The notes: generated by a model from the letters alone, not told the origin. 32,000 nt of DNA from Nostoc punctiforme PCC 73102 (GCF_000020025.1 NC_010628.1:6720001-6752000), one strand, 5' to 3'; positions 5,350 through 24,954 are shown, counted from the stretch's first letter. Translations and numbers: made by a program.

Positions 5350-6528
5350 TTGAGTCACAATCCAGATGCCATAGCCCCCCACGGTGGACAGTTGGTTAAC
5401 CGTATCGCCACACCAGAGCAAAGAGAAGAGTTTCTCTCAAAAGCTGACTTTTTGCCGCGAGTGCAACTTGACGATCGCGCCGTTTCGGATGTAGAAATGA
5501 TTGCGATCGGTGCTTTTAGTCCACTCACGGGTTTTATGAGCCAAGAAGACTACGATCGCACTGTTACAGAAATGCGACTAGCTAATGGTCTTGTGTGGTC
5601 AATTCCGATTACACTATCGGTCACTGAAGAAGTAGCTTCCCCATTGCAAGAAGGTGGCTTAATCCGTCTGGATAACTCCAGAGGTGAATTTATTGCAGTT
5701 TTGCAACTCACGCAAAAATATAATTACGACAAAACCCGCGAAGCCATTAATGTCTACCGCACTGATGATGTCAAACATCCAGGCGTGCAGGTACTCTATA
5801 GCCAAGGTACTGTACATCTGGCGGGTGATATTTGGCTGTTGCAGCGCGAACCTCATCCCCAGTTTCCCACTTACCAAATAGATCCATCTGCCTCACGGCA
5901 ACTATTTAAAGATAAGGGTTGGAAAACAATCGTTGGTTTCCAAACTCGCAACCCTATCCACCGCGCTCATGAATATATTCAAAAGTGCGCTTTAGAAATT
6001 GTTGATGGTCTATTTTTGCACCCATTAGTTGGGGCAACAAAAGAAGATGATATTGCCGCCGATGTGCGGATGCGTTGCTATGAAATTTTGCTGGAACATT
6101 ACTACCCCTTAGACCGGGTAACTTTGGCAATTAATCCAGCCGCAATGCGCTATGCCGGGCCTCGTGAGGCAATATTCCATGCTTTAGTCCGCAAAAACTA
6201 CGGCTGTACTCACTTTATCGTCGGACGGGATCATGCTGGCGTTGGTGACTATTACGGTACTTACGATGCACAATATATCTTTGATGAATTTGCCCCAGGC
6301 GAATTGGGCATTGTGCCGATGAAATTTGAACACGCTTTCTACTGCACGCGCACTAAGCAGATGGCAACATCTAAAACCAGTCCCAGCAGGCCAGAAGAAC
6401 GTATTCACCTATCGGGGACAAAAGTCCGAGAAATGCTGCGGCGTGGTGAATTACCTCCACCAGAATTTTCTCGTCCAGAGGTAGCAGCAGAGTTGGCACG
6501 GGCAATGCGGATAGAAGTACCTGTTTAG
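5350..6528 (+). CDS. sat: Sulfate adenylyltransferase (ATP sulfurylase)
   Basis: [21 protein letters not shown] and GRDHAGVG motifs. The only in-frame start upstream of the conserved N-terminus is the TTG at 5350. Confidence 0.93.
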
Positions 6529-6650
6529 GGAATTGGGAATTGGGCACAACAGTTCCGTTAGCGGATAGCCAAGGTTTAGCCCGTGCTGAGTGAGGAGTTA
6601 GGAGTTAGGAGTTATGAATTCTCTCCCTGCCCCCTGCTCCCTTGCCCCTC
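6529..6650 (+). repeat. Heptamer repeats plus a ~110-bp dispersed repeat, copy A
   Basis: Begins right after the sat stop codon: (GGGAATT)x2, then ttgggcacaacagttccgttagcggatagccaaggtttagcccgtg, then (GGAGTTA)x3 at 6594-6614, then gaattctc...cccctgctccc. A near-identical element in the same orientation lies at 17911..18006. Confidence 0.75.
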
Positions 6651-6723
6651 CTTTTGTAACTTTACAATACAGAGTTCAGCCCTGTAAGCTGCTAGCTAAT
6701 GGGCTTAGGGCTGATAGCTAATT

Positions 6724-8847: not shown

Positions 8848-8914
8848 ACATGGAATTCAGGAATTTAGTTGTGTATATAACTATGGTTCCTGTATTAACA
8901 CTTAATAGAGTTTC

Positions 8915-10030
8915 ATGAAAATCAAGAATCGGGTAGGGTTAGCGTTCTCACTCGTCTTATTATCTGCCAGTATTGCTACCGCCCAACCAAAGCCAACTGA
9001 CTTGCCCAATCCGACAATTTCAACTCAGCAGCAAGACCAACTAGAAAAACTACAACAAGAAAAAGAAATACGCGATCGCGTTCAATCTGAAGTAGATCGG
9101 GCTTTTGGTCATAGCACAACCCTACTCAACATTTTGCTAATCGTATTAACTTTTTTGCCAATCTTAGCGGCGGCTGGTGTTTGGTTGCTACGTCGTAGTG
9201 TAGTTAGTGAATTAGTAACTGAAACAAAGCAACAATTAGAGACAGAAGTCAAAACACAACTAGAAAAAGAAGTCGCGGCAGAGGTAAAAAAACAAACAGA
9301 AGATTTTAAGCAAGAACTAGAAATATTAAAGTCCGACTTTTTAGGGCAATTATCCCAATTAAATAATCTATTTTTAGATGCTCAAAACCAAAAAGAGCTA
9401 ATTCTTCAGCAACTTTCTGGATTAACACCTTCCCCATCATTGACACAAGATTATGTTCACCCAGAAATTCAGCAAAAAATCCAAGAATTAACAACACAAC
9501 TAGAAATACTCAAGGCTGGAAATACTCATTTATTTTTTACTGCTAATGATTATCTTAAACAAGGAGATGCTTTATTTTTTGAAGGTCGATATGAAGATTC
9601 ATTAGCCTGCTATGAACAAGTTATTCAGAGAGAACCTAATTCTTTTCTTGCTTGGATCAATCACGGCTGGGCACTGAGAAGATTAGGGCGCTATCCAAAA
9701 GCATTATTATCATATCAAAAAGCAATTGCTATCCAATCAGATAACTATATAGCTTGGTTTGGGTGCGGTAATTCACTTAGAAAACTACAACGACATGATG
9801 AAGCGATCGCTTCTTATGAGAGAGCCTTAGAACTTCAGCCTGAATTTCATTGGGCTTGGTGCCATAAAGCCCGTTGTCATGCATTAAAAAACGATCGTGA
9901 TTTAGCTATTGAAAGTTTGACACAGGCAATTAAATTAAGAGGCGATCAACATCGAGAGTTAGCAAAAAATAATTCTGACTTTGATTTAATTCGAGCAGAT
10001 GAACGGTTTAAGAAAATACTTGCAGGTTAG
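8915..10030 (+). CDS. Membrane-anchored coiled-coil / TPR-repeat protein
   Basis: Signal-like N-terminus (LAFSLVLLSASIATAQ), a TM helix (LLNILLIVLTFLPILAAAGVWLL), a Q/E/K-rich coiled-coil, then about 4 TPR units (e.g. ALFFEGRYEDSLACYEQVIQREPN, AWINHGWALRRLGRYPKALLSYQKAIAIQ). Only 67 bp downstream of the orthocaspase gene. Confidence 0.8.
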   Translation: MKIKNRVGLAFSLVLLSASIATAQPKPTDLPNPTISTQQQDQLEKLQQEKEIRDRVQSEVDRAFGHSTTLLNILLIVLTFLPILAAAGVWLLRRSVVSELVTETKQQLETEVKTQLEKEVAAEVKKQTEDFKQELEILKSDFLGQLSQLNNLFLDAQNQKELILQQLSGLTPSPSLTQDYVHPEIQQKIQELTTQLEILKAGNTHLFFTANDYLKQGDALFFEGRYEDSLACYEQVIQREPNSFLAWINHGWALRRLGRYPKALLSYQKAIAIQSDNYIAWFGCGNSLRKLQRHDEAIASYERALELQPEFHWAWCHKARCHALKNDRDLAIESLTQAIKLRGDQHRELAKNNSDFDLIRADERFKKILAG

Positions 10031-10340
10031 ATTTTGCGCCTCCCATTTCTTTGTTTTTTTACCGTTCTAGTCTTTGGATGTTACATAAGTGCCTCTGTAC
10101 TGGCTAGCCTTCGAGATAAAACATTTCAAGCAATTTTTGATACCAGTATAAATTAGAGCTTTTTATGACTTTAGTTGTACTCCTATTGATTGGCCTAAGT
10201 GTTCAAATTGAGTATTTTGCTCATAAAGGATGAATTATAAACCAGAAAATATCTCAACTGAATTCAGTCGCCAGCAGGATGAGATTCAGCACAATATTTT
10301 TTACACTCAGAACAGTTATAAACAAACCTGGAAACAGCGT

Positions 10341-11183
10341 ATGCCTCTTCATAAACTTGAACATTTTGATCCAAACTATCGAGAAACTTTTGGTGGAGAC
10401 GACGTTAAATCACTGGTTCTTTATACTGAGGGAGGAGACAGAGTTGGCTCAGTAGCTGATGTTTTAGTTGATGATGATGGTCATTTCCGATATTTAGTTA
10501 TTGACACAAGCGAAGATTTTTCCGGTAAAAAAATCTTATTACCAATTGGTCTTTCCCGGATTGATTATCCTGCAAAACGTGTCTATGTTGATGGGTTAAG
10601 CAAACACCAAGTAGAAGGTTTAGTTGAGTATAAAGAAGACACAATCTTTGATCGTGATTACGAAGAAAAGGTACGTAGTGGATTTCGTTCTCCAACTAGC
10701 GGTGTAACTTACGATCGCAATACATACAATTACCAGACAGAACCAGCTTTATACGGTTTAAATGAGCAATCTCATCAAACTTTCAAACTCTATGAAGAAC
10801 GATTAATTGCTAATAAACACCGGATCAAAACCGGAGAAGTATCAGTTGGTAAACACATTGAAACAGACACTGCACGTGTTACAGTGCCTATTCAAAAAGA
10901 ACGAGTTCTAATTGAGCGAGTTGTGCCAACAGAAGGAGGAAAGATTGTAGATCCCAATGAACTGAAGTTCCAAGAAGGGGAAGTAGCACGTATAGAAGTG
11001 TATGAAGAAACACCAGAAATACATAAAGAAGCATTTGTGCGTGAAGAAGTCCGAGTCAAGAAAGTCGTAGAAAGAGATACAGTGGAAGCACAAGACACCA
11101 TTCGTCGAGAAGAATTAGATGTTGATACTGCGGGTAATTTACATGTGAATGAACATGGCAGTACTACACATGAAACTATTTAA
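10341..11183 (+). CDS. PRC-barrel + DUF2382 (YsnF/AvaK-like) protein, paralog 1
   Basis: The N-terminus from the ATG at 10341 (MPLHKLEHFDPNYRETFGG) parallels paralog 2 (MVLYKLEDFEPNYRDAFEG). The ORF track extends to 10230. PRC-barrel: GSVADVLVDDDGHFRYLVID. DUF2382: LYEERLIANKHRIKTGEVSVGKHIETDTARVTVPIQKERVLIER...REEVRVKK. Confidence 0.8.
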   Translation: MPLHKLEHFDPNYRETFGGDDVKSLVLYTEGGDRVGSVADVLVDDDGHFRYLVIDTSEDFSGKKILLPIGLSRIDYPAKRVYVDGLSKHQVEGLVEYKEDTIFDRDYEEKVRSGFRSPTSGVTYDRNTYNYQTEPALYGLNEQSHQTFKLYEERLIANKHRIKTGEVSVGKHIETDTARVTVPIQKERVLIERVVPTEGGKIVDPNELKFQEGEVARIEVYEETPEIHKEAFVREEVRVKKVVERDTVEAQDTIRREELDVDTAGNLHVNEHGSTTHETI

Positions 11184-11204
11184 GAGGATTGGATTTTTAA
11201 AACT

Positions 11205-11287
11205 TGTAGAGACGTGGGATGTTAGCGTAGCCGAGCATTTCCGATAAGGTTTCCTAGAGAAGCCCAGGTCAGTTTACCATCTCTACA
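11205..11287. repeat. 83-bp element bounded by inverted termini (MITE-like / small dispersed repeat)
   Basis: tgtagagacgtgg (11205-) pairs with ccatctctaca (-11287), whose reverse complement is tgtagagatgg. The interior gttagcgtagccgag...aaggttt resembles the gttagcggatagccaaggttt core of the 6540/17911 repeat. Confidence 0.45.
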
Positions 11288-11351
11288 GTATTTTAATTAC
11301 AACCAAAACTCCTAACTTCTTAAATTTGTTTTGTGAAAATTTTTAGTATTT

Positions 11352-11391
11352 ATATCCCTGACTTTTTTGAAAAGTTGGGGATATAATTTTT
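11352..11391 (+). terminator. Long hairpin with T-run (possible terminator or repeat hairpin)
   Basis: A 15-bp stem (atatccctgactttt with aaaagttggggatat, two G-U pairs), 3-nt loop, then aattttt. It lies about 170 nt past the stop of paralog 1. Confidence 0.4.
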
Positions 11392-11561
11392 AAACTATCA
11401 TTCATTTAGGACTGCTTTTATCTGCCATCAAGAAAAATAACTATAACTTTTGGTTATTTAACTATTGAAATAATTCATTCGACAGAAGGATGTAAAGAAG
11501 TCAAAAAATTTTTATCATAGTTGCTATGAATTGAAAAGAAAAATATTGAGGTTAAATAATA

Positions 11562-12458
11562 ATGGTACTCTACAAATTAGAAGATTTTGAGCCTAACTAT
11601 CGTGATGCATTTGAAGGTCACGATATTTCTGGGCTTGGGGTTTATACACAAGGTACTGATGAAAAAATTGGCACTGTCAGCGATGTTTTAGTTGACGAAG
11701 AAGGTCATTTTCGCTATTTAGTTGTTGACTTAGGCTTCTGGATTTTTGGTAAAAAAGTATTACTACCAATTGGTCGTGCCCGTATCGACTATAACGTCGA
11801 TCGCGTCTACACAATTGGCTTGACTAGAGAGCAAGCGGAAGATTTACCTGAGTTCAATGAACGTCAAGCGCTTGATTACGATTACGAAGAACGGGTGCGT
11901 GGCGTATATCGTCAACCAGCATATTCCACCAATACTTTAGATGCATCAGCACCTGTAGAAGCATCAATACCTGTAGATACAACCTATCAGCCAGCGACGA
12001 CTACGCCAATTTATAATCGTGATAGCTACAATTACGAACATGAGCCTTCTTTATTCGGGTTAAATGAGCAAGATCATCAAACTCTGAGATTGTATGAAGA
12101 ACGGCTGATTGCCAGCAAACATCGCCAAAAAACTGGAGAAGTATCCATTGGCAAGCGTGTTGAAACTGATACTGCACGGGTTGCAGTGCCAGTAGAAAGA
12201 GAGCGAGTTGTGATTGAACGTGTAACTCCAGTAGATGCAGGTACTGCCGTTTCTGGACGCGAAGCAGATTTCCGTGAAGGCGAAGTTGCTCGTCTAGAAA
12301 TCCATGAAGAAACTCCTGATGTTCGTAAAGAAGCATTTTTGCGTGAAGAAGTCAGAGTTAGAAAGGTGGTCGATCAAGACACAGTTGAAACGCAAGAAAC
12401 TGTGCGACGTGAAGAGCTAGATGTGAATTCTGGTAATCTTCCCATTGAAGAACGCTAA
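11562..12458 (+). CDS. PRC-barrel + DUF2382 (YsnF/AvaK-like) protein, paralog 2
   Basis: GTVSDVLVDEEGHFRYLVVD. LYEERLIASKHRQKTGEVSIGKRVETDTARVAVPVERERVVIER...REEVRVRK. By eye roughly 70% identical to paralog 1 across the C-terminal domain. Confidence 0.87.
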   Translation: MVLYKLEDFEPNYRDAFEGHDISGLGVYTQGTDEKIGTVSDVLVDEEGHFRYLVVDLGFWIFGKKVLLPIGRARIDYNVDRVYTIGLTREQAEDLPEFNERQALDYDYEERVRGVYRQPAYSTNTLDASAPVEASIPVDTTYQPATTTPIYNRDSYNYEHEPSLFGLNEQDHQTLRLYEERLIASKHRQKTGEVSIGKRVETDTARVAVPVERERVVIERVTPVDAGTAVSGREADFREGEVARLEIHEETPDVRKEAFLREEVRVRKVVDQDTVETQETVRREELDVNSGNLPIEER

Positions 12459-12467
12459 CCAAACATA

Positions 12468-12502
12468 GTCATTAGTTAGTAGCTAATGACTAATAATTAA
12501 TT
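12468..12502 (+). terminator. Hairpin after paralog 2 (candidate terminator)
   Basis: gtcattag (12468-75) pairs with ctaatgac (12483-90), 7-nt loop, followed by an A/T-rich tail. A second 8-bp hairpin is acaggtaa (12512-19) with ttacctgt (12537-44). Confidence 0.35.
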
Positions 12503-12617
12503 CGACACAGTACAGGTAAGGCCGATTGAATTAGCTTTACCTGTGCTTCCAATAGCTTAAAATGAGAAATACATTTAATTTAGCTAAGTAAAAAGCAGTT
12601 TATAAACTTTGTATATT

Positions 12618-13529
12618 ATGAATAGCCAACCGATGACAAAAAACATTGGACAGGCAAATAGTAATTCTGGCACTAACACCTCAATAGCAGATTTGAAAAA
12701 GAGGGTGAAGAATTTTGCTGTGTTCGATAACCAAGGTCAGCTAGTAGGAGTAGTTTATGATTTGATTGTGGATGCTAATAGGCGGTTAAACCTAGTTATA
12801 TCAAACCAGGTCAATCAACAAACTCTAGAATATGGCGAGCAGTTAGCCGATAAACATCCTTCTTTTTTTCGATTGCAGAGCCAGAGAATAAAAAAAATTG
12901 ACAAGCCGACTAAATCTGTTTTCATAGACTTCAACAAATCAGAAATCGAATATATGCCTGAATATTCAGAAGCAGAAAAAACCGGCGATGTCTACGAGGG
13001 GCTACGCCTAGACAACCCAACTGAGCAATTGGTTAATAATCAAACTCAAAATAGCGCAGTTGAGCCAGTAGATTTAGAAGAGGTCAGCGAAGAACAAATT
13101 ATTCGTCTACTAGAAGAACGACTAGTTGTTGAAAGCAGTAAGCGAAAAGTTGGTGAGGTGATTGTTCGCAAAGTCATCGAAACCCAGATGATCCAAGTTC
13201 CTGTCCGGCGTGAAAAGCTGATTGTGGAACAAATTAGCCCAGAACATAAACAACTCGCAGAAATTGATTTAGGTCAAGAGGAAATTGCTAATGTTGACTT
13301 GACCGGAGTAGAAAGACTCGAAGGTACATATTTTGAAAGCGGTTTAACAATAAGCGGCGAATTTAACTCGCCGAAAACTGCTAGTTTATTGTTGAATGCG
13401 ATCGCACTAGAGCAAAATCACGGCTGCAATCGGGTGCGTGTTACCATTGCTGTTGAAGATGAGTCACACAAGAATAAATACCAGGAGTGGTTTGATCGCT
13501 GTTCGAAAGATCAATCACCCAAGCCGTAA
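12618..13529 (+). CDS. Divergent PRC-like + DUF2382 domain protein, paralog 3
   Basis: The ATG at 12618 is preferred over the TTG at 12609. Degenerate PRC-like stretch: FAVFDNQGQLVGVVYDLIVDANRRLNLVIS. Clear DUF2382 core: LLEERLVVESSKRKVGEVIVRKVIETQMIQVPVRREKLIVEQ. It has a unique C-terminal ~90 aa. Confidence 0.7.
   Translation: MNSQPMTKNIGQANSNSGTNTSIADLKKRVKNFAVFDNQGQLVGVVYDLIVDANRRLNLVISNQVNQQTLEYGEQLADKHPSFFRLQSQRIKKIDKPTKSVFIDFNKSEIEYMPEYSEAEKTGDVYEGLRLDNPTEQLVNNQTQNSAVEPVDLEEVSEEQIIRLLEERLVVESSKRKVGEVIVRKVIETQMIQVPVRREKLIVEQISPEHKQLAEIDLGQEEIANVDLTGVERLEGTYFESGLTISGEFNSPKTASLLLNAIALEQNHGCNRVRVTIAVEDESHKNKYQEWFDRCSKDQSPKP
12985..13012. repeat. Short dispersed-repeat-like sequence in frame inside paralog 3
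   Basis: gcgatgtctacgaggggctacgcctaga, translated as GDVYEGLRLD. It shares tctacgag-NN-gctacgc with the intergenic copy at 1006..1030. Confidence 0.45.
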
Positions 13530-13587: not shown

Positions 13588-13656
13588 CTTATTTAATCAC
13601 TTCAGCTCAGAGAGTGTCAAAATACTAAGCAGTTGCCGTTCTTTTGGCTACTTGCA

Positions 13657-14580
13657 ATGAAATTTCGACTGAAGAGACTTTCACGGAAGAAACAACAGCG
13701 TCTGATTTTACCTATTCAGATTCAAGTTCGAGACGGAAAATTTGAGATTATGGGTATGGGTGTATGGCATTCTTACTGGCGCGATCCCTACCATTTGCTG
13801 TTAACGATTCCCTGGGCTGGCTTTCTACTGCTGATTTGTACTTTCTATATAACTATCAATGCTCTATTTGCCCTAGCTTACTTGATAGGAGGAGATTGTA
13901 TTGCCAACGCCCGGCCAGGCTCTTTTTTAGATGTCTTTTTCTTCAGCGTGCAAACCCTAGCATCCATTGGCTATGGGGCGATGTATCCCAAAACAACTTA
14001 CGCCAACATTATTGTCACCATTGAAGCAATGATCGGTTTGGTGGGAATTGCTGTGATGACGGGGCTAGCCTTTGCTCGATTTTCCCGACCTACAGCTAGG
14101 GTACTTTTTAGTCGTATTGCTGTAATTACACCTCATAATGCAATGCCAACTCTCATATTTCGCACCGCTAATCAGCGTCGCAATATGATTCTAGAGGCGC
14201 AGATGCGAGTCTACTTAATGCGTGACGAAATAACCCTAGAAGGGCAATTTATGCGTCGGTTCTACGATCTCAAACTGTTAAGGAACCAAACGCCTAGCTT
14301 CACGTTAAGCTGGTCAGTGATGCATGTCATTGATGAGTTTAGTCCTCTATATGGCATGACACCAGAATCCTTAATCCAGACAAATACTATCCTAATTGTC
14401 TCTTTGAGTGGCATTGATGAAACGGTTGCACAGGTAGTCCATGCCCGTCATACTTATGCTGCTAATGAAATTTTGTGGAATAATCAATTTGCCGATATCT
14501 TCTACCACGCACCCGATGGACATCGCTACATTGATTACAACCGCTTTCACGATGTTTCGCCTTTAGATGAAATGCTTTAA
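13657..14580 (+). CDS. Inward-rectifier-type potassium channel (KirBac family)
   Basis: Selectivity filter TLASIGYGAMYP (GYG = 13969..13977), two TM helices flanking the pore helix, and a Kir-type cytoplasmic beta-rich C-terminal domain. The ATG at 13657 is preferred over the TTG at 13633. Confidence 0.88.
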   Translation: MKFRLKRLSRKKQQRLILPIQIQVRDGKFEIMGMGVWHSYWRDPYHLLLTIPWAGFLLLICTFYITINALFALAYLIGGDCIANARPGSFLDVFFFSVQTLASIGYGAMYPKTTYANIIVTIEAMIGLVGIAVMTGLAFARFSRPTARVLFSRIAVITPHNAMPTLIFRTANQRRNMILEAQMRVYLMRDEITLEGQFMRRFYDLKLLRNQTPSFTLSWSVMHVIDEFSPLYGMTPESLIQTNTILIVSLSGIDETVAQVVHARHTYAANEILWNNQFADIFYHAPDGHRYIDYNRFHDVSPLDEML

Positions 14581-14947: not shown

Positions 14948-16030
14948 TTAACCGTTGATAGCAGGAGCAGTCATTGCTACAGGAGTAATTTCACCAGCAG
15001 CTAAGTCTAGGGGGAAGTTGTGAGCGTTACGCTCGTGCATTACTTCCATACCTAAGTTAGCGCGGTTGATTACGTCTGCCCAGGTGCTGATAACGCGACC
15101 TTGAGAGTCAATGATTGATTGGTTGAAGTTGAAACCGTTCAGGTTGAACGCCATCGTGCTGATACCCAAAGCGGTGAACCAGATACCGACGACAGGCCAA
15201 GCTGCTAAGAAGAAGTGCAGTGAACGGCTGTTGTTGAAGGAAGCGTATTGGAAGATCAAACGACCGAAGTAACCGTGGGCTGCAACGATGTTGTAGGTTT
15301 CTTCTTCTTGACCGAATTTGTAACCGTAGTTAAGGGATTCGGTTTCGGTGGTTTCACGCACCAAGGAAGAAGTTACTAGAGAACCGTGCATTGCAGAGAA
15401 CAAGGAACCGCCGAATACACCAGCCACACCTAACATGTGGAAGGGGTGCATCAAGATGTTGTGTTCTGCTTGGAACACGATCATGAAGTTGAAGGTTCCA
15501 GAGATACCCAAAGGCATACCATCAGAGAAAGAACCTTGACCGATGGGGTAGATCAAGAATACTGCGGTAGCAGAAGCCAAAGGTGCGCTGTAAGCTACGC
15601 AGATCCAAGGACGCATACCTAAGCGGTAAGAAAGTTCCCACTGACGACCCAGGTAGCAAGCGCAACCGATCAAGAAGTGGAAAACTACCAATTGGTAAGG
15701 ACCACCGTTGTACAACCACTCATCTAAGGAAGCAGCTTCCCAGATTGGGTAGAAGTGCAAGCCAATAGCGTTTGAGGAAGGAACAACTGCACCAGAGATG
15801 ATGTTGTTTCCGTAGATCAAAGAACCTGCAACTGGTTCACGGATACCATCAATGTCTACTGGAGGTGCTGCGATGAAGGCAATTACGAAGCAAGCAGTAG
15901 CTGCTAGTAGGGTTGGGATCATCAGTACACCAAACCAACCGACATATATACGGTTGTCAGTGCTGGTAATCCACTCGCAAAAGCGATCCCAAACGTTAGC
16001 GCCAGAGCGCCGTTGTAAGGTTGTGGTCAT
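14948..16030 (-). CDS. psbA: Photosystem II reaction-centre protein D1 (360 aa, Q130 isoform)
   Basis: [35 protein letters not shown]...[16 protein letters not shown]...APAING. The canonical start is the ATG at 16030, so the ORF-track start at 16072 adds 14 non-conserved residues. Codon 130 is CAG (15641-15643). Confidence 0.97.
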
Positions 16031-16379
16031 TGTTTTATAAGTGCTATTTTTTGTTAAAAATGGAACAAGCAAATTTTGTTTTGCCTGTTGAATTACAGTC
16101 TACATGAATTTACTTTGACACGATCTTTGGCTTAATATTCTGTAATAGAATTCTTTAACAAGATCGTCGAAATGTAAAGTTTTTCTACTATGAATAATAG
16201 TGATAAAAGTAAGCGATTAAAGCTTTCTAAGCTATTACAAAATTAAACTGGCTATAACTTTCAATGACGCGATCGCCTAGTTTATTGTCTTTACATTCCG
16301 TTACAAATAGCCAGGATAATCTGTAACGAAATAATAAGTTGTACATTGTCTTATGTTGCTGTTGATTGTTTGTAGAAAC

Positions 16380-17879
16380 CTAAAAATCAAAGTATATATA
16401 GGGCAAGCTGCCTTCAGGAGCTAATAACCAAACAGCGTAGAAACATAGAGGGACAAAGACAAGCTTAATGGGCCAGTTAAACTCTAACTTCAGCATCCGG
16501 TTAAAGGCATAAACTACAGCCATCAGAGCAGCCAAAGTTAGCAGCACCCAAGTGAGTTGGTATTGGCTAATATTTAAAGCATCCACATAGACCTTTTGAG
16601 CAAACTGGGCATCAGCAGGATAACGCCAAAGGTGTCGAATTACCAAAGAAGAGTCTGCGATATTCGGTAGACGGAACCAAATCCAAGAGGTAAAAACCAT
16701 CAGTTGGGTCAAAAACCAAGCGACGAAGATACCTAGAGGATTTTGCCAGAATTGCTCCAGATTTTCAAAGCGATCGCTCATAGCATCTGTAAGTCGATGA
16801 ACCACTAAGGCTAACCCGTGGAATATGCCCCAAACTACATAACCCAAAGCAGCCCCATGCCAGATACCAGCGATTAGCATCACAGTAAATAAATTCCAGC
16901 AGGTGCGGATTAAACCGCGACGCGAACCGCCCAAAGGAAAGTAGACATAGTTGCGTAGCCAATCTCCGAGAGTGATATGCCAGCGCCGCCAAAATTCTCC
17001 AATACTGGTGCTGAAGTAGGGAAAGTCAAAATTTTCAGGTAGAACCAAGCCGAAAAGTAAGGCACTCCCACGGGCAATATCTACGTAACCGTTGAAATCT
17101 AGATATAACTGCAAACCGTAGGCAAATGTTGCTAACCAGAGATCGGTACTACCCGCCCGTTGTAAGTTACCAAAGCATAAATCAACAAAAATTCCCAGGT
17201 GATCTGCAAAAATACCTTTTTTGACTGCACCTCTAGCAATTAACCACAGCGCCTCTGCTACTCTATCGGCACTGGGAAAGTCTAGCGTATTGAATTGATT
17301 TGCTAAGTTGTGGTAGCGCGTAATCGGGCCGGAAATCAGTTTGGCGAAGAATAATTTATAGGTTGCAAATTTAAGAAACTGATCGGTAGCAGGCGCACCA
17401 CGATAGACATCTATTAAATAGGCAATACACTCAAAGGTGAAAAATGAAATTCCCAAAGGTGCAATCAATTTAAAAGAGCTATCTGGTGAGTTTGCTTGGA
17501 TATTGAAAACAAACTTAAATAGAGGGGTTAGATACTTAAAAGCTAATAATAGTAAAACATTTAGAGCTATACCTAGCCACAAAACTTTTAGACGACGACG
17601 ATTCCAGTCGCCTTGGGCAAATTGCCACTCTTCATTAGAAATTTGCCAGTCAAGAGAATGTTTCCCTGGTGATGTATTTTTTCCAATCTCTAGCCCCAAA
17701 CGAAAATTGATAAACGTCAATGCTAATAACAATGGTATGTACTGGATGTGCAAAGATGCGTAGAAAACCAAACTAGCAATTAGCAACGTCCATAATCGTA
17801 ATTTCTGTTGTGCTAAAGACCAGTAAATTCCTAAAACACTCAACAAGAAAAGACCATAGAAAATTGATATAAAGTTCAT
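16380..17879 (-). CDS. MBOAT-family membrane-bound O-acyltransferase (AlgI/DltB-like)
   Basis: A 499-aa polytopic protein. FWRRWHITLGDWLRNYVYFPLGGSR and AGIWHGA are the hallmark MBOAT His-containing blocks. Confidence 0.9.
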   Translation of the reverse strand: MNFISIFYGLFLLSVLGIYWSLAQQKLRLWTLLIASLVFYASLHIQYIPLLLALTFINFRLGLEIGKNTSPGKHSLDWQISNEEWQFAQGDWNRRRLKVLWLGIALNVLLLLAFKYLTPLFKFVFNIQANSPDSSFKLIAPLGISFFTFECIAYLIDVYRGAPATDQFLKFATYKLFFAKLISGPITRYHNLANQFNTLDFPSADRVAEALWLIARGAVKKGIFADHLGIFVDLCFGNLQRAGSTDLWLATFAYGLQLYLDFNGYVDIARGSALLFGLVLPENFDFPYFSTSIGEFWRRWHITLGDWLRNYVYFPLGGSRRGLIRTCWNLFTVMLIAGIWHGAALGYVVWGIFHGLALVVHRLTDAMSDRFENLEQFWQNPLGIFVAWFLTQLMVFTSWIWFRLPNIADSSLVIRHLWRYPADAQFAQKVYVDALNISQYQLTWVLLTLAALMAVVYAFNRMLKLEFNWPIKLVFVPLCFYAVWLLAPEGSLPYIYFDF

Positions 17880-17885
17880 TTTTTA

Positions 17886-18006
17886 GTCATTTGTTATTTG
17901 TCATTTGTCATTGGGCAAAACAGTTCCAAATGCTGTTAGCGGATAGCTAAGGTTTAGCCCGTGAAGAGTTAGGAGTTACGAATTCTCCCCCATTCCCCTG
18001 CTCCCT
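17886..18006 (+). repeat. Heptamer array plus ~95-bp dispersed repeat, copy B, filling the intercistronic spacer
   Basis: (GTCATTT-like)x4 at 17886-17913, then ttgggcaaaacagttcc..gttagcggatagctaaggtttagcccgtg..ttaggagttacgaattctc..cccctgctccc. Collinear with 6540..6650. Confidence 0.75.
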
Positions 18007-21000
18007 ACTTCACTGGCCAAGGAATCATCGGGTCATTAGCCAGCTTTTTGGAGACTTCGTATGCTCCAAAGCGGTTGAGATGGCTGGGATCTGAGAAGTA
18101 GTCATGTGCTTTGGGCCACTTTTGGCTCAGATCCCGATAAATAAAGTTGGGATTAGTAGCTAGACGCAACATATATTGCTGAAATTGTTGCTCATATTGT
18201 CTACGCACTGGATCTAAATAATCTGCCGTGAGAGGCATATTGACAAACACTAAGGAAATTTTCTGAGACTGGGTAAACTGAAGCACTTCTTGAAGAGCAG
18301 CATCTTGCTGTCCTTCTACTTGGAAAGATTTATAGTCGTTGTCGTAATTTCCGGTAACTCTAGAATGTTTTTGATAGTATCTAGCAGGATTGAAGCGAAT
18401 AGACAAAGGTAGAAAACCATCAAAATCAACTGCTTGCTGGGAAATACTCTCATCTGAAGTTCCGTCTGTTAGCTGTTTTTGTGATGCAACTGTCTGATTG
18501 CTACCAAATATAAGCAATTGTTTTTGCAGTAAGCCTTTAATTTGGTCGCGGTTTTGATAGCTAGCAGAAAGAGATGCCAGACCCTGATTTAAGGAATCAT
18601 TGACAGCTTGATATGTGCTAATCTCCTGTTTTTCTTCTTTTACCTTCTCTTCTGGCGAACTTTCCTGATTTTTGGGCGATTCGCTGCTATTCGCTATTGT
18701 TGGGTTTTTTTGGAATGCTTGCTTATAACCAGCTGATGCTGCGATGGATTTAAAGGTAATGTCCTCGCGTCCACCGTTGAAAGCACGGGCCCCATCCGCC
18801 CAGAGAATTATTTTAGGCAGTTCTGATGGTTCCAGCACGTGACGAAGCACAAAGTCTACAACTTGTGCAGTAGCACCGTTGATCCCAAAGTTAAACACGT
18901 CAATATTGGGATAGCCTTGAGTCGCTAAAGCTTTAGAAAGTTCTGCTGGGTCTACTCCTCTGAGGGCGCGGGAGGAGCCAATAATCAACACATCGGGCGG
19001 TGTACCAGTTCTCGCTAAACGCTGTTTATACAGTGCTAGTTGCTCATCTAACTGCCTGACATTGAAACTTGGCATCTGCGATCGCGCTGCTAAAAGAATA
19101 GCTGTTGCGGTTGCTTTTTCTTTCAGTGGTGCGGCTGCCAAATTCTTTGTCGAAGTATCATCACTTTGGGTAAACTCAGAAGCATTAAATACAGAACTCT
19201 GATTTGCAGGAGATTTTGTTTTAGAACTGCTGCTAAAAAATACCGTTTTCTCACTCTGAGTTTTTTCAGATGTTAAAGATGCCTTTTGTCCAGATGATGA
19301 AGGTAAAACACTGGCTACTTTTGGCAAACTCGGTTTAGTCTGTGCAGTAATTCGACCCAATACCCAATCAGTTTGGAGAGTGAGTAATAATCCCAGTGTC
19401 CCCCAAACTAGAGCAATCTTAAGTCCTTGATCGTCAGGATTTTCTTCTCCTAACTCGTGGCTTTCGGTAAATAGCTGGCTTTTTAACAGGAACTTTTTCG
19501 CGGTTGCACTCGCCGTTGCTATCCAATCTCGCGCTACTTCTGTTACAAAACTTTGAACTTCTTCTGTTGTTAAGTCTGGGCGCAAAATTGGTTCACTAGT
19601 CTCAGAGGGTATTAAATCATCTACGTATTTAGAAGTGGCAGCGAATTCTGGGGTTGCTTCTGGTACTAAACGTTGGCGATGTTCAAGATCAACGCCATAG
19701 TGCCAAAAAGGTTCTTTATTCCCAGCCCGGCGACCGTATATACGTATTCCCATAATACCGGGAATTTTCAAATGGCGGATAAACTGCGTAATTTTACTTG
19801 CTACTTGTTGACGACCTGGACAAACAGGCGCATCACACATGATGTGTAATAAATCATTTTTGTTCAGTAAGAGGACACGAATTCCACCTGTCAATAAACG
19901 CCAATCTAGGTCAGGATTGAGTAAACGCTCTAGTAAAAATGTGATGGCTGGTTCATCACCAGTATTAGCTAAATCTAGCGGTGATGTGGCAAAGGCGGGA
20001 TGGGTGGTGGCGGGTAAAGCTAGCCAATCAATCCAAGTGGGTTGTTTGTCGCCTGCTTTTTGCCCGTAGATGGTGGCAGCGAGAATGCCTTGAGGTGCGA
20101 TCGCTTCTAACTGGGGTACAATAGCCTCTAAGCACACTGCTTTGTCTGGGATTGGCGCAGTTCCTAAAGGATCAAAAGCTGGCGTACAAAAGATGTGTAG
20201 AGTTGATTCTTTCAGAGAAGCTTGGACAGAAACTTTTAATCCTGACAATACCTCAGTTAATAGCCGAGCGATCGCTTGGATATCACCCCAACGCGCCCAT
20301 TCTTTCAGCATTACCTCTGATGGGGTCAAATCGACACGCAGCAACCAATCAGGGGCTGTTTCGCCGCTTACCTGGGAAACAATTACGGCATCTTGGTAGC
20401 CGTAAAGTTTGAGATAACGCAATTTCTCTGCTATTGGTTCCGCAAGCAATGAGGCATCGGGGCTATAGCTCGACTGGCAAAATATCCACAGGCGGTTTTC
20501 TTCCGGCTGAGAGTTCTTTGGCTGATACGGCTTAATCTTTGCCTGTACCGATACACCTAACGTACTCAGAGTTTCGCTGAGATATCTAGCGATCGCCTCT
20601 GGATTGCCTTGGCGTGCCAAACTTTCGTTAGAGACAATGAGTGCCCCAGCCGACTGTTTTGATTTTTCCGCATCTGCTAGCAAGGCTTGCTCCACCTGCT
20701 CCAGATGCTTATCTATTTGATTCAAGTAAACCCGATGGCACCATTTGGGGCGCTGTTCCCCTTTTCTTCGGCCATAGACAAATACTTGATATATTGAGGT
20801 TTGTTCGCTGCTTGTGAGAATATCTAAGTTTGTTTGCTGTAATGCTTGCAGCAAATCAGACAAAGTACGCCAACGCTGCGGACATTCTGTGCCTTCACAA
20901 AGAATATGAAGGTCATTTCCCCGTAACCGGACTTTCACCCCGAAAGTGTTAATCCCTGTGGCTTGGCTTACCCATTGCACTAAGGATTGCTGGCGATCTG

Positions 21001-21016
21001 GTAATACTGTTTTCAT
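18005..21016 (-). CDS. 1003-aa bitopic protein with four N-terminal repeats of an unrecognised domain, one TM helix, an S/T-rich linker and a C-terminal SGNH/DltD-like (DUF1574-like) domain
   Basis: The repeats (aa ~1-105, ~138-232, ~243-335, ~353-446) each carry L-(H/W)-I-x-C and, in three of four, (I/V)YG(R/Q)xxGxxxPxW. The TM helix is LKIALVWGTLGLLLTLQTDWVLG (aa ~532-555). The C-terminal domain has VLIIGSSRA, FGINGAT, WADGARAFNGG and SDPSHLN, which resemble SGNH blocks I, II, III and V. Confidence 0.85.
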   Translation of the reverse strand: MKTVLPDRQQSLVQWVSQATGINTFGVKVRLRGNDLHILCEGTECPQRWRTLSDLLQALQQTNLDILTSSEQTSIYQVFVYGRRKGEQRPKWCHRVYLNQIDKHLEQVEQALLADAEKSKQSAGALIVSNESLARQGNPEAIARYLSETLSTLGVSVQAKIKPYQPKNSQPEENRLWIFCQSSYSPDASLLAEPIAEKLRYLKLYGYQDAVIVSQVSGETAPDWLLRVDLTPSEVMLKEWARWGDIQAIARLLTEVLSGLKVSVQASLKESTLHIFCTPAFDPLGTAPIPDKAVCLEAIVPQLEAIAPQGILAATIYGQKAGDKQPTWIDWLALPATTHPAFATSPLDLANTGDEPAITFLLERLLNPDLDWRLLTGGIRVLLLNKNDLLHIMCDAPVCPGRQQVASKITQFIRHLKIPGIMGIRIYGRRAGNKEPFWHYGVDLEHRQRLVPEATPEFAATSKYVDDLIPSETSEPILRPDLTTEEVQSFVTEVARDWIATASATAKKFLLKSQLFTESHELGEENPDDQGLKIALVWGTLGLLLTLQTDWVLGRITAQTKPSLPKVASVLPSSSGQKASLTSEKTQSEKTVFFSSSSKTKSPANQSSVFNASEFTQSDDTSTKNLAAAPLKEKATATAILLAARSQMPSFNVRQLDEQLALYKQRLARTGTPPDVLIIGSSRALRGVDPAELSKALATQGYPNIDVFNFGINGATAQVVDFVLRHVLEPSELPKIILWADGARAFNGGREDITFKSIAASAGYKQAFQKNPTIANSSESPKNQESSPEEKVKEEKQEISTYQAVNDSLNQGLASLSASYQNRDQIKGLLQKQLLIFGSNQTVASQKQLTDGTSDESISQQAVDFDGFLPLSIRFNPARYYQKHSRVTGNYDNDYKSFQVEGQQDAALQEVLQFTQSQKISLVFVNMPLTADYLDPVRRQYEQQFQQYMLRLATNPNFIYRDLSQKWPKAHDYFSDPSHLNRFGAYEVSKKLANDPMIPWPVK

Positions 21017-21502: not shown

Positions 21503-21739
21503 ATGCCTCCTGCCAACGAACAACCCTCAACTAACCTGCCATCCCATCTCGATTTATTTACCATTCCCCAATCGTTCCTTTTACAAATAGGTACAGCGTC
21601 TATATTACTGCTGCTCATTACCGGAAAAACCACCGTAAGGGCACTAGAAAGCATAGGGGAAGCCAGTGAAGAATTGTTTCGAGGCGATCGCCTACCCATT
21701 CTCGACTTCCCAGAGGAGCGCGAAACTAATCAAACTTAG
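21503..21739 (+). CDS. Small hypothetical membrane protein (78 aa)
   Basis: One hydrophobic helix (FLLQIGTASILLLLITG) and an acidic tail. It overlaps an antisense ORF of similar size, so the coding status is uncertain. Confidence 0.4.
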   Translation: MPPANEQPSTNLPSHLDLFTIPQSFLLQIGTASILLLLITGKTTVRALESIGEASEELFRGDRLPILDFPEERETNQT

Positions 21740-21840: not shown

Positions 21841-24800
21841 ATGGGTTCCCTTTTATACTCTTCGTCTCAAACTGCGGATATATACCCGGTGTCGGAATTA
21901 TTTTTGCGTCATCGTCTCCAGGTAGTGGAAGAATTGTGGGAGTCTGTTCTCCGGCAAGAATGCGGTCAAAACATGGTAGACTTGTTGCGGCAGCTGCGCG
22001 ATCTGTGTTCGCCAGAAGGACAGGCAACAAATGACCAAGCATCCTCAGCCGTCAAATTAATTGAACAACTAAATATCAACGAAGCAATCCGCGCGGCTCG
22101 TGCTTTCGCTCTGTATTTTCAGCTGATTAACATCATAGAGCAGGAATACGAGCAAAGGCAGCAACTGAGTCGCTATGAAGCAGAAACAGAGCCTACAGAC
22201 TCAGAAAGAGCATCTAATGTCAATTACTCGTCCAATCAAAGAGAAGATGATGCGCCTGTTAGCAAGGGAATAGCAGCAGAATTGCTAGCAAAGAACTATC
22301 TAGAAAAAGCGCAAGTCAAACCAAAAGGGACTTTCGCTGCCTTGTTTCCCTATTTATTCAAACAGAATGTACCACCCCAGCAGATTCAACGTCTCATTGC
22401 TCATCTAGATGTGCGCTTAGTTTTCACAGCGCACCCGACGGAAATTGTTCGTCATACCATCCGAGATAAGCAGCGACAGGTGGTACAACTCTTGCAAAAA
22501 CTGGATACCTTAGAAAACCATGCTGGTGGTACAGGTGGCGGATATGCTTGGGAAGCAGCAGATGTCCGCGAACAATTGCTTGAAGAAATTCGCCTCTGGT
22601 GGCGCACGGACGAACTTCACCAGTTCAAACCTACTGTGCTAGATGAAGTAGATTATGCCCTCCACTACTTCCAAGAAGTTTTATTTGATGGCATTCCTCA
22701 ACTTTATAAACGTTTCAAACATACACTATCTAATACCTTTCCTTGGCTAGAACCACCAAGTAAAAACTTTTGTTCTTTTGGCTCTTGGGTAGGCTCAGAT
22801 AGGGATGGGAACCCATCAGTTACACCAGAAGTGACCTGGCAAACAGCTTGCTATCAGCGCAAAATGGTCCTGGGGAGATATATTCAGTCAGTGAAAAATC
22901 TGATTGAATTGTTGAGTGTGTCGATGCACTGGAGTGATGTCTTACCAGATTTGCTGGAATCTCTAGAGTTAGATCAGTCCCAGTTGAGTGAGGTATATGA
23001 TGCACTGGCGCTGCGTTATCGGCAAGAACCCTATCGGCTGAAACTCGCTTATGTACTGAAACGACTAGAAAATACTCGCGATCGCAATCTAGCTTTGTAC
23101 AATCGGGAAACGCCAAAAAATCAAGATAGTCCCCTGTATCGTTCGGGAGACGATTTTTTAGCTGAACTGCGGATGATTCAGCGTAACTTGACAGAAACAG
23201 GTTTAAGCTGTCGAGATTTAGAAAATCTCATCTGTCAGGTAGAAATTTTTGGTTTTAACTTGACACAGCTAGATATCCGTCAAGAATCATCCCGCCATGC
23301 TGATGCGCTAAATGAAATCCTACAATACCTGCAAATATTACCTCAACCTTACAACGAACTATCTGAGGAGCAAAAAGTTGCTTGGCTTACAGGAGAACTG
23401 CAAACCCGCCGGCCATTAATTCCAGCAGAATTGCCATTTTCTGAAAAAACCAACGATGTAATTGAAACCTTTCGCGTCGTGCGATCGCTGCAACAAGAAT
23501 TTGGTCTAAATATCTGCCAAACTTACATTATCAGCATGTGCCGCGACGTGAGCGACGTGCTAGAAGTACTACTGTTAGCCAAAGAAGCCAGACTTTTTGA
23601 CCCCGCCATAGCCGTGGGAACCATTCAAGTTGTCCCCTTATTTGAAACAGTAGAAGACTTACAACGCTCCAGAAGCGTCATGCGGAAACTGTTTGAACTC
23701 CCGTTATATCGCGCTTTGTTAGCCGGTGGCTACGAACAAACAAAAACAGAGAGTGTTGTCGTGGATGAAAATTCATCCTCCCTTGCCTCCCCTGCCCCCC
23801 CTGCTTCCCCCGCTTCCCCTGCCCCCTCCCCCTCCCCCCTCACCCCTAACTTGCAAGAAGTGATGCTGGGGTATTCTGACAGCAACAAAGACTCTGGTTT
23901 TTTAAGCAGCAACTGGGAAATTCATAAAGCCCAAAAATCACTGCAACAAATAGCAGAAGGCTACGATATAAATTTGCGGATTTTCCACGGACGCGGCGGT
24001 TCTGTAGGGCGGGGTGGTGGCCCTGCTTACGAGGCAATTTTGGCTCAACCGGGTCATAGTATCAATGGGCGAATCAAGATTACCGAACAAGGAGAAGTTT
24101 TGGCTTCTAAATACTCCTTGTTGGACTTGGCTTTGTACCACATGGAAACCATCACCACTGCTGTGATTCAAGCTAGCCTGCTGCGGACAGGGTTTGATGA
24201 TATTGAACCCTGGAATGAGATTATGGAAGAATTAGCAGCGCGATCGCGGCAACATTATCGGGCTTTAATTTATGAACAGCCTGATTTTGTGGACTTTTTC
24301 CATCAAGTAACCCCCATTGAAGAAATTAGCCAGCTACAAATTAGTTCCCGTCCAGCCCGTCGCCCATCTGGTAAGAAAGATTTAAGCAGTCTGCGAGCTA
24401 TTCCTTGGGTATTTAGTTGGACGCAAACCCGCTTTTTGCTTCCTTCCTGGTATGGCGTTGGCACAGCGTTACAAGAATTCTTGAATGCAGAACCAGAAGA
24501 ACACTTGAAATTAATGCGCTACTTTTACGTTAAGTGGCCCTTTTTCAAGATGGTGATTTCTAAGGCCGAGATGACTTTGGCAAAAGTAGATATGCAAATG
24601 GCACATCACTACGTTCAAGAATTGTCACAATCAGAAGATCAACTCCGCTTTGCTAAGGTTTTTGACCAAATTGCCAGCGAGTTCTATCTCACAAGGGATT
24701 TGGTGTTAAAAATCACCGATCACAATCAATTGTTAGATGGCGATCCTGTCTTGCAACGATCTGTGCAGTTACGCAATGGCACAATTGTCCCCTTGGGATT

Positions 24801-24954
24801 TATCCAAGTTTCCCTGCTCAAGCGCCTACGCCAGTCTATGAATACTAATGCCACTTCTGGAGTCATCCATTCTCGTTACAGCAAAGGCGAGTTACTACGA
24901 GGTGCATTGTTAACTATTAATGGAATTGCAGCCGGGATGAGAAATACAGGTTGA
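21841..24954 (+). CDS. ppc: Phosphoenolpyruvate carboxylase
   Basis: [38 protein letters not shown] and the C-terminal [12 protein letters not shown]. It contains a P/S/A-rich insert just before the GYSDSNKD block. Confidence 0.97.

Follow-up and report, generated by a model that had tools for sequence, protein, structure and literature searches.

A predicted MBOAT–SGNH O-acylation pair in Nostoc punctiforme whose SGNH partner carries four copies of an undescribed domain

What reaction would a cyanobacterial gene pair carry out when one of its products is an MBOAT (a membrane-bound O-acyltransferase) and the other joins an SGNH-type enzyme domain to four repeats that match no described family, and what would those repeats be doing there? 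The pair lies on the minus strand of a 32,000-nt stretch of DNA from Nostoc punctiforme PCC 73102 (the window; all positions are counted from its first letter), with the gene for the large protein (1003 amino acids (aa)) at 18005–21016 and the MBOAT gene (499 aa) at 16380–17879, separated by an intergenic spacer of 125 bp without a terminator-like site (17880–18004). Both open reading frames (ORFs) were found where an initial annotation of this DNA had placed them, and translation reproduced the motifs that it had quoted from the large protein (GSSR, NGA, ADGARAFN and DPSH). From its N terminus, the large protein is built of four repeats, a transmembrane helix, a disordered spacer and a DUF1574/SGNH domain, a map that was established in 117 orthologues; Nostoc entries named 'DUF1574 family protein' (from LEGE 12450, N. 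punctiforme UO1 and others) are 98–99% identical to it.

We propose that the pair constitutes a PatA/PatB-type MBOAT–SGNH machine that O-acylates (most likely O-acetylates) an extracytoplasmic polymer of the cell envelope, and that the repeats form a general scaffolding or regulatory unit in the cytoplasm; we put the probability of this reading at roughly 0.6. The O-acylation logic of an MBOAT with an SGNH partner, which the initial annotation had invoked, finds support at the sequence level, and the pair resembles PatA/PatB more closely than DltB/DltD. The type of system is thus a known one, and what is new is the cytoplasmic head on the SGNH partner, composed of four copies of an undescribed mobile domain.

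The MBOAT and its shuttle motif

The smaller protein matches the Pfam MBOAT family (1.9e-29) and aligns with structures of DltB (6bug; E = 2e-25), its WHG motif (16854–16862, minus strand) falling on the catalytic-His region of DltB. His341 of this motif is invariant across a conservation set of 76 sequences, 75 of which are complete orthologues, as expected of the MBOAT with conserved His that had been predicted at this position. The NCBIfam equivalog model of DltB (TIGR04091) was matched with E = 4e-45 but with only 154.6 bits, far below its cut-off of 375. The chain terminates in YIYFDF (16383–16400, minus strand), a motif of the FxYxxF type whose Tyr496 is likewise invariant; all 75 complete orthologues end in [Y/F/H][I/V]YF[D/A/S][F/Y], with mostly Tyr instead of Phe at the first position. 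The initial annotation lacked this feature, which strengthens the MBOAT–SGNH logic. According to a 2025 study of PatA/PatB, bacterial MBOATs with SGNH partners use a catalytic His and auto-acylate the invariant Tyr of a C-terminal FxYxxF 'acyl shuttle' hexapeptide—shown experimentally for PatA—whereas in the Dlt system the shuttle peptide comes from the microprotein DltX (PMC12148441). Judged by its motifs, the window MBOAT belongs to the self-shuttling, PatA-like class.

SGNH domain, membrane anchor and proposed mechanism

The C-terminal part of the large protein (aa 641–1003; 18008–19096, minus strand) is assigned to the SGNH clan by Pfam matches, invariant sequence blocks and fold matches to SGNH esterases, in agreement with the SGNH-like domain that had been suggested for it. 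The Pfam model DUF1574 (PF07611) covers residues 676–980 with positions 65–326 of its 342, scoring 32.0 bits (gathering cut-off, 29.1). Among 37 diverse orthologues, most of which are only 35–49% identical, matches at E ≤ 0.01 were obtained to DUF1574 (34/37), Lipase_GDSL_2 (14/37) and DltD (6/37), all of which are SGNH-type, and none to an AlgX family. Given these marginal DUF1574 scores, the cyanobacterial proteins look like a distant subgroup of DUF1574, an SGNH family without known activity or structure (PMC9487903). Four blocks are invariant in the 37 orthologues, down to approximately 37% identity: G680-S-S-R683 (the GSSR block, 18968–18979), N713-G714 (the NG block, 18872–18880), A740-D-G742 (including D741) with N747 (the ADGARAFN block, 18776–18799) and S975-D-P-S-H979 (the DPSH block, 18080–18091), all on the minus strand and with coordinates verified. 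Their order (S681, G714, N747 and H979) is the canonical S-G-N-H. Foldseek comparison of the full-length AlphaFold2 (AF2) model matched the SGNH half to the esterases PAF-AH (probability 0.92) and Axe2 (0.84) at E ~0.1; the model also has a disordered insert within the domain (18422–18721, minus strand).

A single transmembrane helix (aa 529–556; 19349–19432, minus strand; motif VWGxxGLLLxxQxDW) is predicted between the repeats and the SGNH domain from hydrophobicity and conservation. That such a helix is present, as first annotated, agrees with its conservation in the 117 orthologues and with the one long helix (530–559) in the full-length AF2 model, but its hydrophobicity is weak in the window protein (Kyte–Doolittle value of only 1.36; mean of 1.71 over the 117 orthologues). 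The helix shares 49% identity with distant orthologues, compared with approximately 15% for the linkers on either side. It is followed by a poorly conserved spacer rich in Ser, Thr, Lys and Ala (aa 557–640; 19097–19348, minus strand; 15% identity, predicted local distance difference test (pLDDT) score <35) that would be periplasmic. An N terminus resembling a signal peptide was found in none of the 117 orthologues, and the shuttle Tyr of PatA is extracytoplasmic (PMC12148441), which together suggest that the repeats are cytoplasmic and the SGNH domain outside.

On this basis, the MBOAT would take an acyl group from cytoplasmic acyl-CoA and, at the membrane's outer face, His341 would transfer it to Tyr496 within the C-terminal YIYFDF shuttle of the protein itself. 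From there it would pass to the block-I Ser (Ser681 or Ser682; its triad completed by Asp976 and His979) of the SGNH domain in the periplasm, which would hand it on to the polymer. The conserved transmembrane helix may hold the large protein against the MBOAT, as has been modelled for PatB and found for DltD (PMC12148441), with the disordered Ser/Thr-rich spacer giving the catalytic domain the reach to its substrate; this would place the head of approximately 530 aa on the MBOAT's cytoplasmic side, apart from the acyl-transfer chemistry. Extracellular polymeric substances (EPS) of cyanobacteria have been reported to carry ester-linked acetyl groups, and Synechocystis PCC 6803 to be without an AlgI homologue (PMC4594306), so that the modification is not essential to all cyanobacteria.

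Linkage and distribution of the pair

A pattern scan of species-representative genomes, at least 565 of which encode a relative of the SGNH partner, which makes the system a widespread one in cyanobacteria, provided 80 loci that were kept, all from Nostocales, and distant loci (L081, L085, L086 and L088–L090) added range. Where both genes were mapped (75 loci), the MBOAT gene comes next downstream of the large gene and is read from the same strand in 74 cases (gap of 27–294 bp; median, 121 bp), distant lineages included, an arrangement that the proposed operon had implied. Distant lineages matter for this linkage because the whole block of five genes—ppc, a small ORF, the large gene, the MBOAT gene and psbA—is syntenic: it is conserved from Nostocales to Waterburya (L090, with the same five-gene block as the window) and in part to Picosynechococcus (L088). 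One of these loci (L086) has ppc, the small ORF, the large gene and the MBOAT gene, and Lusitaniella (L089) has the large gene, the MBOAT gene and psbA, with ppc gone. Adjacency of the pair is therefore old and frequent, although not universal. Such depth of synteny is unusual among genes whose functions are unrelated, and nothing obvious explains it.

Several observations weigh against the reading of the pair as an O-acylation machine. With regard to linkage, the MBOAT gene of the 75th locus (L081) lies 2.6 kb downstream with two genes between, and no MBOAT gene was found within 7 kb in L085, within 8 kb in Picosynechococcus PCC 8807 (L088) or within 6 kb in a Scytonema locus (L051); the catalytic SGNH residues are invariant also in lineages in which the MBOAT gene is separated or not nearby. 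Moreover, ppc, the small ORF and psbA are equally syntenic across the phylum, which makes adjacency alone weak evidence of coupling. With regard to the proteins, the DUF1574 score is barely over its cut-off (32.0 versus 29.1 bits), the SGNH part of the AF2 model has a pLDDT of 50–77 and thus gives only moderate fold support, and two family profiles, run against PDB sequences, found nothing for the large-protein family even at E ≤ 10. The bias of Lys and Arg around the transmembrane helix is weak (1.8 versus 1.3), for which reason the topology is one that we infer. The window contains no pointer to a target polymer, the evidence fits more than one of the possible roles of the head, and the papers found to mention the probable Anabaena counterpart of the large protein (below) list it only as hypothetical. 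In L088, the place of the MBOAT gene is taken by a radical-SAM gene on the opposite strand.

The strongest competing explanation treats the large protein as an SGNH esterase or lipase of the periplasm—an Ape1-like de-acylase or a lysophospholipase—that acts independently of the MBOAT, whose gene would be its neighbour through inherited gene order. Such a protein would be in keeping with the hydrolases that make up most characterised SGNH proteins (PMC12148441), with the label 'lysophospholipase L1 or related esterase' that some sources give it, with ppc, the small ORF and psbA being neighbours as conserved as the MBOAT gene, and with catalytic residues that are still invariant in L051, L085 and Picosynechococcus, where no MBOAT lies within 6–8 kb. 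However, the window MBOAT carries the C-terminal Tyr shuttle motif described for bacterial MBOATs with SGNH partners (PMC12148441) and has no second SGNH gene beside it, and in Lusitaniella the pair is still adjacent although ppc has been lost. The transmembrane anchor and spacer are arranged as in PatB and DltD, and the unusually conserved sequence of the helix suggests a partner within the membrane. We consider a stand-alone esterase unlikely, and retain the PatA/PatB-type machine as the preferred reading.

The literature on Anabaena PCC 7120 lists all4861 (ppc), asl4862 (a hypothetical protein of 77 aa), alr4863 (a hypothetical protein of 999 aa) and alr4866 (psbA). As the order, strands and sizes of these genes match those of the window, alr4863 is, from synteny and length, very probably the Anabaena orthologue of the large protein. 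It has been published as a 'signature protein' for Nostocales and Oscillatoriales, and has been placed in a 'core set' of genes said to be exclusive to filamentous species (PMC2821919). This filament-only placement is contradicted by full-length orthologues from unicellular Picosynechococcus and Synechococcus NIES-970; others occur in Leptolyngbya PCC 7376, Limnothrix, Moorea, Lusitaniella, Waterburya and Nostocales. The unicellular orthologues (L088, P0232 and P0317) have four repeats, the transmembrane helix and the SGNH domain. The published filament-specific status of alr4863 can thus be corrected. We found no functional study of alr4863, DUF1574, PF27429 (a Pfam family discussed below) or a cyanobacterial MBOAT, DltD or AlgI in the literature.

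Four repeats of one domain

The N-terminal head contains four genuine copies of one domain, all encoded on the minus strand: R1 (aa 7–107; 20696–20998), R2 (aa 130–238; 20303–20629), R3 (aa 236–340; 19997–20311) and R4 (aa 346–450; 19667–19981). The initial annotation had recognized the four copies but gave them a length of 95–140 aa, whereas they measure 101–109 aa. Pairwise BLASTP between repeats yielded E values of 4.6e-15 (R2/R3), 1.9e-10 (R1/R4) and 6.5e-9 (R3/R4), and Smith–Waterman z-scores from 300 shuffles were 8–19 for five of the six repeat pairs and 3.4 for R1/R2. A profile built from 76 diverse copies of the module matched each repeat with a domain E value between 2e-26 and 3e-32 (1e-30 for R2, 1e-31 for R3 and 3e-32 for R4). 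The motif [IV]YG[RQ]xxGxxxPxW, previously described in three of the copies, is indeed present in three (at residues 80, 316 and 426).

In the full-length AF2 model (mean pLDDT of 53; approximately 55–85 in the repeats; disordered at 447–651 and 770–897), all four copies share an alpha-beta-beta-alpha-beta-beta core, which has a pLDDT of 70–81 in R2. Modelling a single repeat (R3) from the alignment of 76 sequences raised the pLDDT to 92 (predicted template-modelling score, 0.84) and gave a fold of approximately 105 aa with the order alpha0 (2–7), alpha1 (11–25), beta1, beta2, alpha2 (57–71), beta3 and beta4. R2, R3 and R4 are joined by little or no linker, R3 abutting R2 directly, and R1, the most divergent copy, is connected to R2 through a linker of variable length. 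Mean identity to distant orthologues is 33% for R1, 52% for R2, 45% for R3 and 51% for R4, compared with 55–60% for the SGNH core and approximately 15% for the linkers and the insert; by this measure, with R2–R4 close to the SGNH core and far above the linkers, the head is under constraint comparable to that on the enzyme domain.

The linker between R1 and R2 is a hotspot for change: two proteins (P0121, 1510 aa; P0123, 1655 aa) have inserts of approximately 450–570 aa there, one of which carries pentapeptide repeats. L085 has R1 on an ORF of its own (148 aa; 6315–6785), just upstream of a protein with three repeats, which could reflect a gene split or a frameshift.

Distribution and novelty of the repeat module

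The repeats fall outside any described family, as had been suspected when they were first noticed. No Pfam model matched the N-terminal part of the 37 orthologues, no Pfam family recurred among the 76 single module copies (maximum, 2/76), NCBIfam had no match to the repeats, and the PDB sequence search was negative. Foldseek with the single-repeat model of pLDDT 92 gave a best E value of 0.089 and template-modelling (TM) scores ≤ 0.5, and its weak matches were to generic two-layer alpha/beta domains (pilotins, KH-II, GerMN, FliF ring-building motifs, BON and CzrB); the full-length model gave weak matches of mixed kind. The family PF27429 ('LB_356') was considered as a model of the repeats and rejected, its faint match accompanying DUF1574 and proteins with repeats only having no precomputed Pfam domain; it is probably a related SGNH-type family. 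PF27429 is precomputed on some close homologues, although we did not see directly where on them it matches.

A profile search of 1.84 billion cluster representatives (E ≤ 0.001) found the module in 1,627 of them. Among the 150 best, whose architectures were examined, 117 have the layout of repeats, transmembrane helix and SGNH domain, usually with four copies and in some cases with two or three, and the others are mostly truncated. A second group of architectures has two or three repeats at the extreme N terminus followed by other membrane-associated parts: Gly-zipper/transmembrane segments with TPR (with or without GUN4), DUF726, EcsC or a PPPDE/LRAT-type peptidase domain. Examples are P0264, P0266 (GUN4), P0268, P0269, P0253 and P0262; GUN4 and TPR domains are usually cytoplasmic, and if they are so here, the topology of those module proteins is a separate matter. 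The module was always N-terminal in the examples examined, and stand-alone module proteins of 129–190 aa exist as well. A word-index search with a repeat-only query returned 14 proteins, all hypothetical and without a precomputed Pfam domain. All named sources of the module are cyanobacteria, the divergent representatives being nearly all without a source name, and within the window and 1.19 Mb of fetched loci the only other module-bearing gene was the split-off R1 of L085.

Because unrelated membrane-associated proteins also begin with this module, a general role in scaffolding or regulation—assembly, localisation or partner binding—is the most economical and, by this comparison, the most likely one for the head. 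A bolder proposal, which we offer tentatively and rate below even odds, is that the module represents an undescribed domain family, so far confined to cyanobacteria, with an alpha/beta fold of its own that serves as a portable cytoplasmic head, and that the four-copy array couples a cytoplasmic signal or assembly state through the transmembrane helix to the extracytoplasmic MBOAT–SGNH acyltransferase.

Possible roles of the N-terminal head

The head might instead serve as a docking platform for an acyl donor or carrier at the cytoplasmic mouth of the MBOAT, comparable to DltC on DltB, and thereby set which acyl group is transferred. It would adjoin the cytoplasmic face of the MBOAT if the transmembrane helix binds as in the models of PatAB and DltBD (PMC12148441), and the conservation of R2–R4 is nearly that of the catalytic domain. 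However, the occurrence of the module at the head of TPR/GUN4, DUF726, EcsC and PPPDE/LRAT proteins points to a general role, the MBOAT has its own shuttle motif, as in the acyl-CoA-using PatA class that needs no carrier protein, and no carrier-protein or ligase gene is found nearby in the window. Donor docking is therefore an improbable function, somewhat more so than the stand-alone esterase.

A further candidate, which we judge slightly less probable again, is a cytoplasmic redox or metal sensor in which the Cys of the L-H-I-x-C and C-x4-C-P motifs, with the neighbouring His, gate acylation according to the photosynthetic redox state. The initial annotation had described an invariant Cys in L-(H/W)-I-x-C of each repeat. 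The motifs are present where they were reported (LHILC at residue 36, LWIFC at 176, LHIFC at 273 and LHIMC at 390), and the Cys is constant among the four copies of this protein, but the invariance does not extend to the 37 orthologues: C180 and C277 are retained in 35, C399 in 34–35, C40 in 25 and C45 in only 15, and C394 is replaced by Thr or Ser outside Nostocales. The retention of C180, C277 and C399, that of His37, His274 and His391 (28–36/37), the C-x4-C pair in R1 and R4 of the window protein, and the predicted cytoplasmic location in a phototroph would all suit a sensor. Across the wider module family, however, Cys occupies the position in only 42 of the 76 copies and is otherwise replaced by Leu, Val, Ser or Ala, as would be expected of a core position buried on a beta-strand; the near-universal residues of the module (Gly9, Leu38, Pro55, Tyr82-Gly83 and Trp93, the last in 76/76 copies) are structural; and Foldseek of the single repeat yielded no metal-binding or thioredoxin-like fold. 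These substitutions and the structural nature of the near-universal residues do not favour a thiol-based function; the Cys probably lies on a beta-strand as part of the buried core.

A reversed topology, which would make the repeats ring-building or BON-like modules of the periplasm and put the SGNH domain in the cytoplasm, is very improbable: the weak fold matches of the repeats are to periplasmic domains (FliF/PrgK/CdsD ring-building motifs, BON domains of OsmY and DolP, GerM and pilotins) and the charge bias at the helix is slight, but those matches are non-significant (E ≥ 0.09, TM score ≤ 0.5), none of the 117 orthologues has an N-terminal signal or anchor to export a head of approximately 530 aa, and the shuttle Tyr and SGNH domain are extracytoplasmic in characterised MBOAT–SGNH systems (PMC12148441).

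Neighbourhood of the pair

Downstream of the pair lies psbA (14948–16072, minus strand), and upstream are an ORF of 78 aa (21503–21739, plus strand) and the gene for phosphoenolpyruvate carboxylase (ppc; 21841–24954, plus strand). As listed, the psbA ORF starts with TTG and encodes 374 aa. The alignment of many orthologous loci begins only at residue 19, and residue 15 is the first of MTTTLQRR, which suggests that the true start is probably downstream of the listed one. The 78-aa ORF, located between ppc and the large gene on the strand of ppc, has one hydrophobic segment and no Pfam family, and tblastn retrieved it from 84 of the 90 loci fetched, among them the distant L085, L086, L088 and L090. 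Its C terminus (...EERETNQT) has no FxYxxF tail, which indicates that it is not DltX-like. In position and size it fits Anabaena asl4862 (77 aa), a published cyanobacterial 'signature protein'.

The products of the other genes in the window are unrelated and comprise a caspase-like peptidase, a TPR protein, three PRC-barrel/DUF2382 proteins, a Kir-type channel, a DUF4090 protein and an aldo-keto reductase; polysaccharide-synthesis genes are absent. The caspase-domain protein (Peptidase_C14; 707 aa, with a C-terminal DUF4384) is followed directly by the TPR protein (371 aa; both within 6724–10030, plus strand), the N-terminal 210 aa of which match neither Pfam nor the repeat-module profile. Three tandem paralogous genes (317, 298 and 306 aa) occupy 10230–13529 (plus strand), the first two encoding a PRC-barrel with DUF2382 and the third having only a partial DUF2382 detected, and 13633–14580 (plus strand) encodes a Kir-like potassium channel of the bacterial inward-rectifier type, with IRK_C and Ion_trans_2 domains. 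An Rfam scan of the whole window returned zero matches, and a scan for promoters and terminators gave site numbers no higher than those of shuffled sequence.

Comparison with known systems

MBOAT–SGNH pairs modify peptidoglycan, teichoic acids, alginate and cellulose, and affect lysozyme resistance, autolysin control and biofilm properties (PMC12148441). The window pair shares with PatA/PatB a separate MBOAT with a catalytic His and an FxYxxF-type Tyr shuttle at the end of its chain (PMC12148441), as well as a separate SGNH partner with canonical blocks, a single predicted transmembrane anchor and, ahead of the catalytic domain, a linker modelled with low confidence, the two genes being adjacent and co-oriented. 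It differs in that position 1 of the shuttle motif is Tyr rather than Phe, that no Ape1-like esterase gene adjoins the pair and that the SGNH partner falls in DUF1574 and not in the PatB family, which we take to be PF04311/DUF459. The PatB family has been given as DUF459 (PMC9487903), and PatB begins with its transmembrane helix (PMC12148441), whereas approximately 530 residues with four repeats precede the helix of the window protein.

The Dlt system offers the nearest sequence relatives of the MBOAT (DltB structures, E = 2e-25), a transmembrane-anchored SGNH protein, weak Pfam DltD matches in 6 of the 37 large-protein orthologues and one source that names a homologue DltD. Membership in DltB/DltD was nevertheless rejected: the TIGR04091 score (154.6 bits) is below the equivalog cut-off of 375, dltA, dltC and dltX are absent from the window, and the shuttle motif is fused to the MBOAT itself instead of residing on a DltX microprotein. 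Cyanobacteria are diderms, and we know of no description of teichoic acids in them.

The alginate (AlgI/AlgJ/AlgX) and cellulose (WssH/WssI) systems share the logic of an MBOAT with an SGNH-like partner in exopolysaccharide acetylation (PMC12148441, PMC9487903), but no AlgF, synthase or export genes are found near the window pair. AlgJ and AlgX have a circularly permuted order of blocks (H-S-G-N; PMC9487903), a type that is excluded here by the canonical order S681, G714, N747 and H979. As to DUF1574, the window protein exceeds the gathering cut-off and 34 of the 37 orthologues match, but the match is confined to the C-terminal domain of the large protein. The repeats resemble ring-building motifs, BON and GerMN in being small, tandem two-layer alpha/beta domains beside a membrane anchor; they differ in having two N-terminal helices and a fourth strand, in lacking sequence similarity and in their predicted cytoplasmic location, the others being periplasmic. 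Assignment of the repeats to these folds was rejected, the matches being non-significant (E = 0.089, TM score ≤ 0.5) and the order of secondary structure different.

The pair provides a concrete candidate for O-acylation of the envelope or EPS in cyanobacteria—an earlier survey omitted MBOAT/AlgI-type modification from its analysis (PMC4594306)—and gives the DUF1574 family a mechanistic hypothesis. The module, found in 1,627 cluster representatives, amounts to a new mobile domain, one that may have a general role in the membrane proteins of cyanobacteria. To our knowledge, the SGNH partner in characterised systems is a simple transmembrane-anchored ectoenzyme, and the window pair, if our reading is true, would be the first such system known to us with a cytoplasmic control or scaffold unit built into the SGNH partner. 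The enzymology would be the expected one, and the cytoplasmic head its unusual part.

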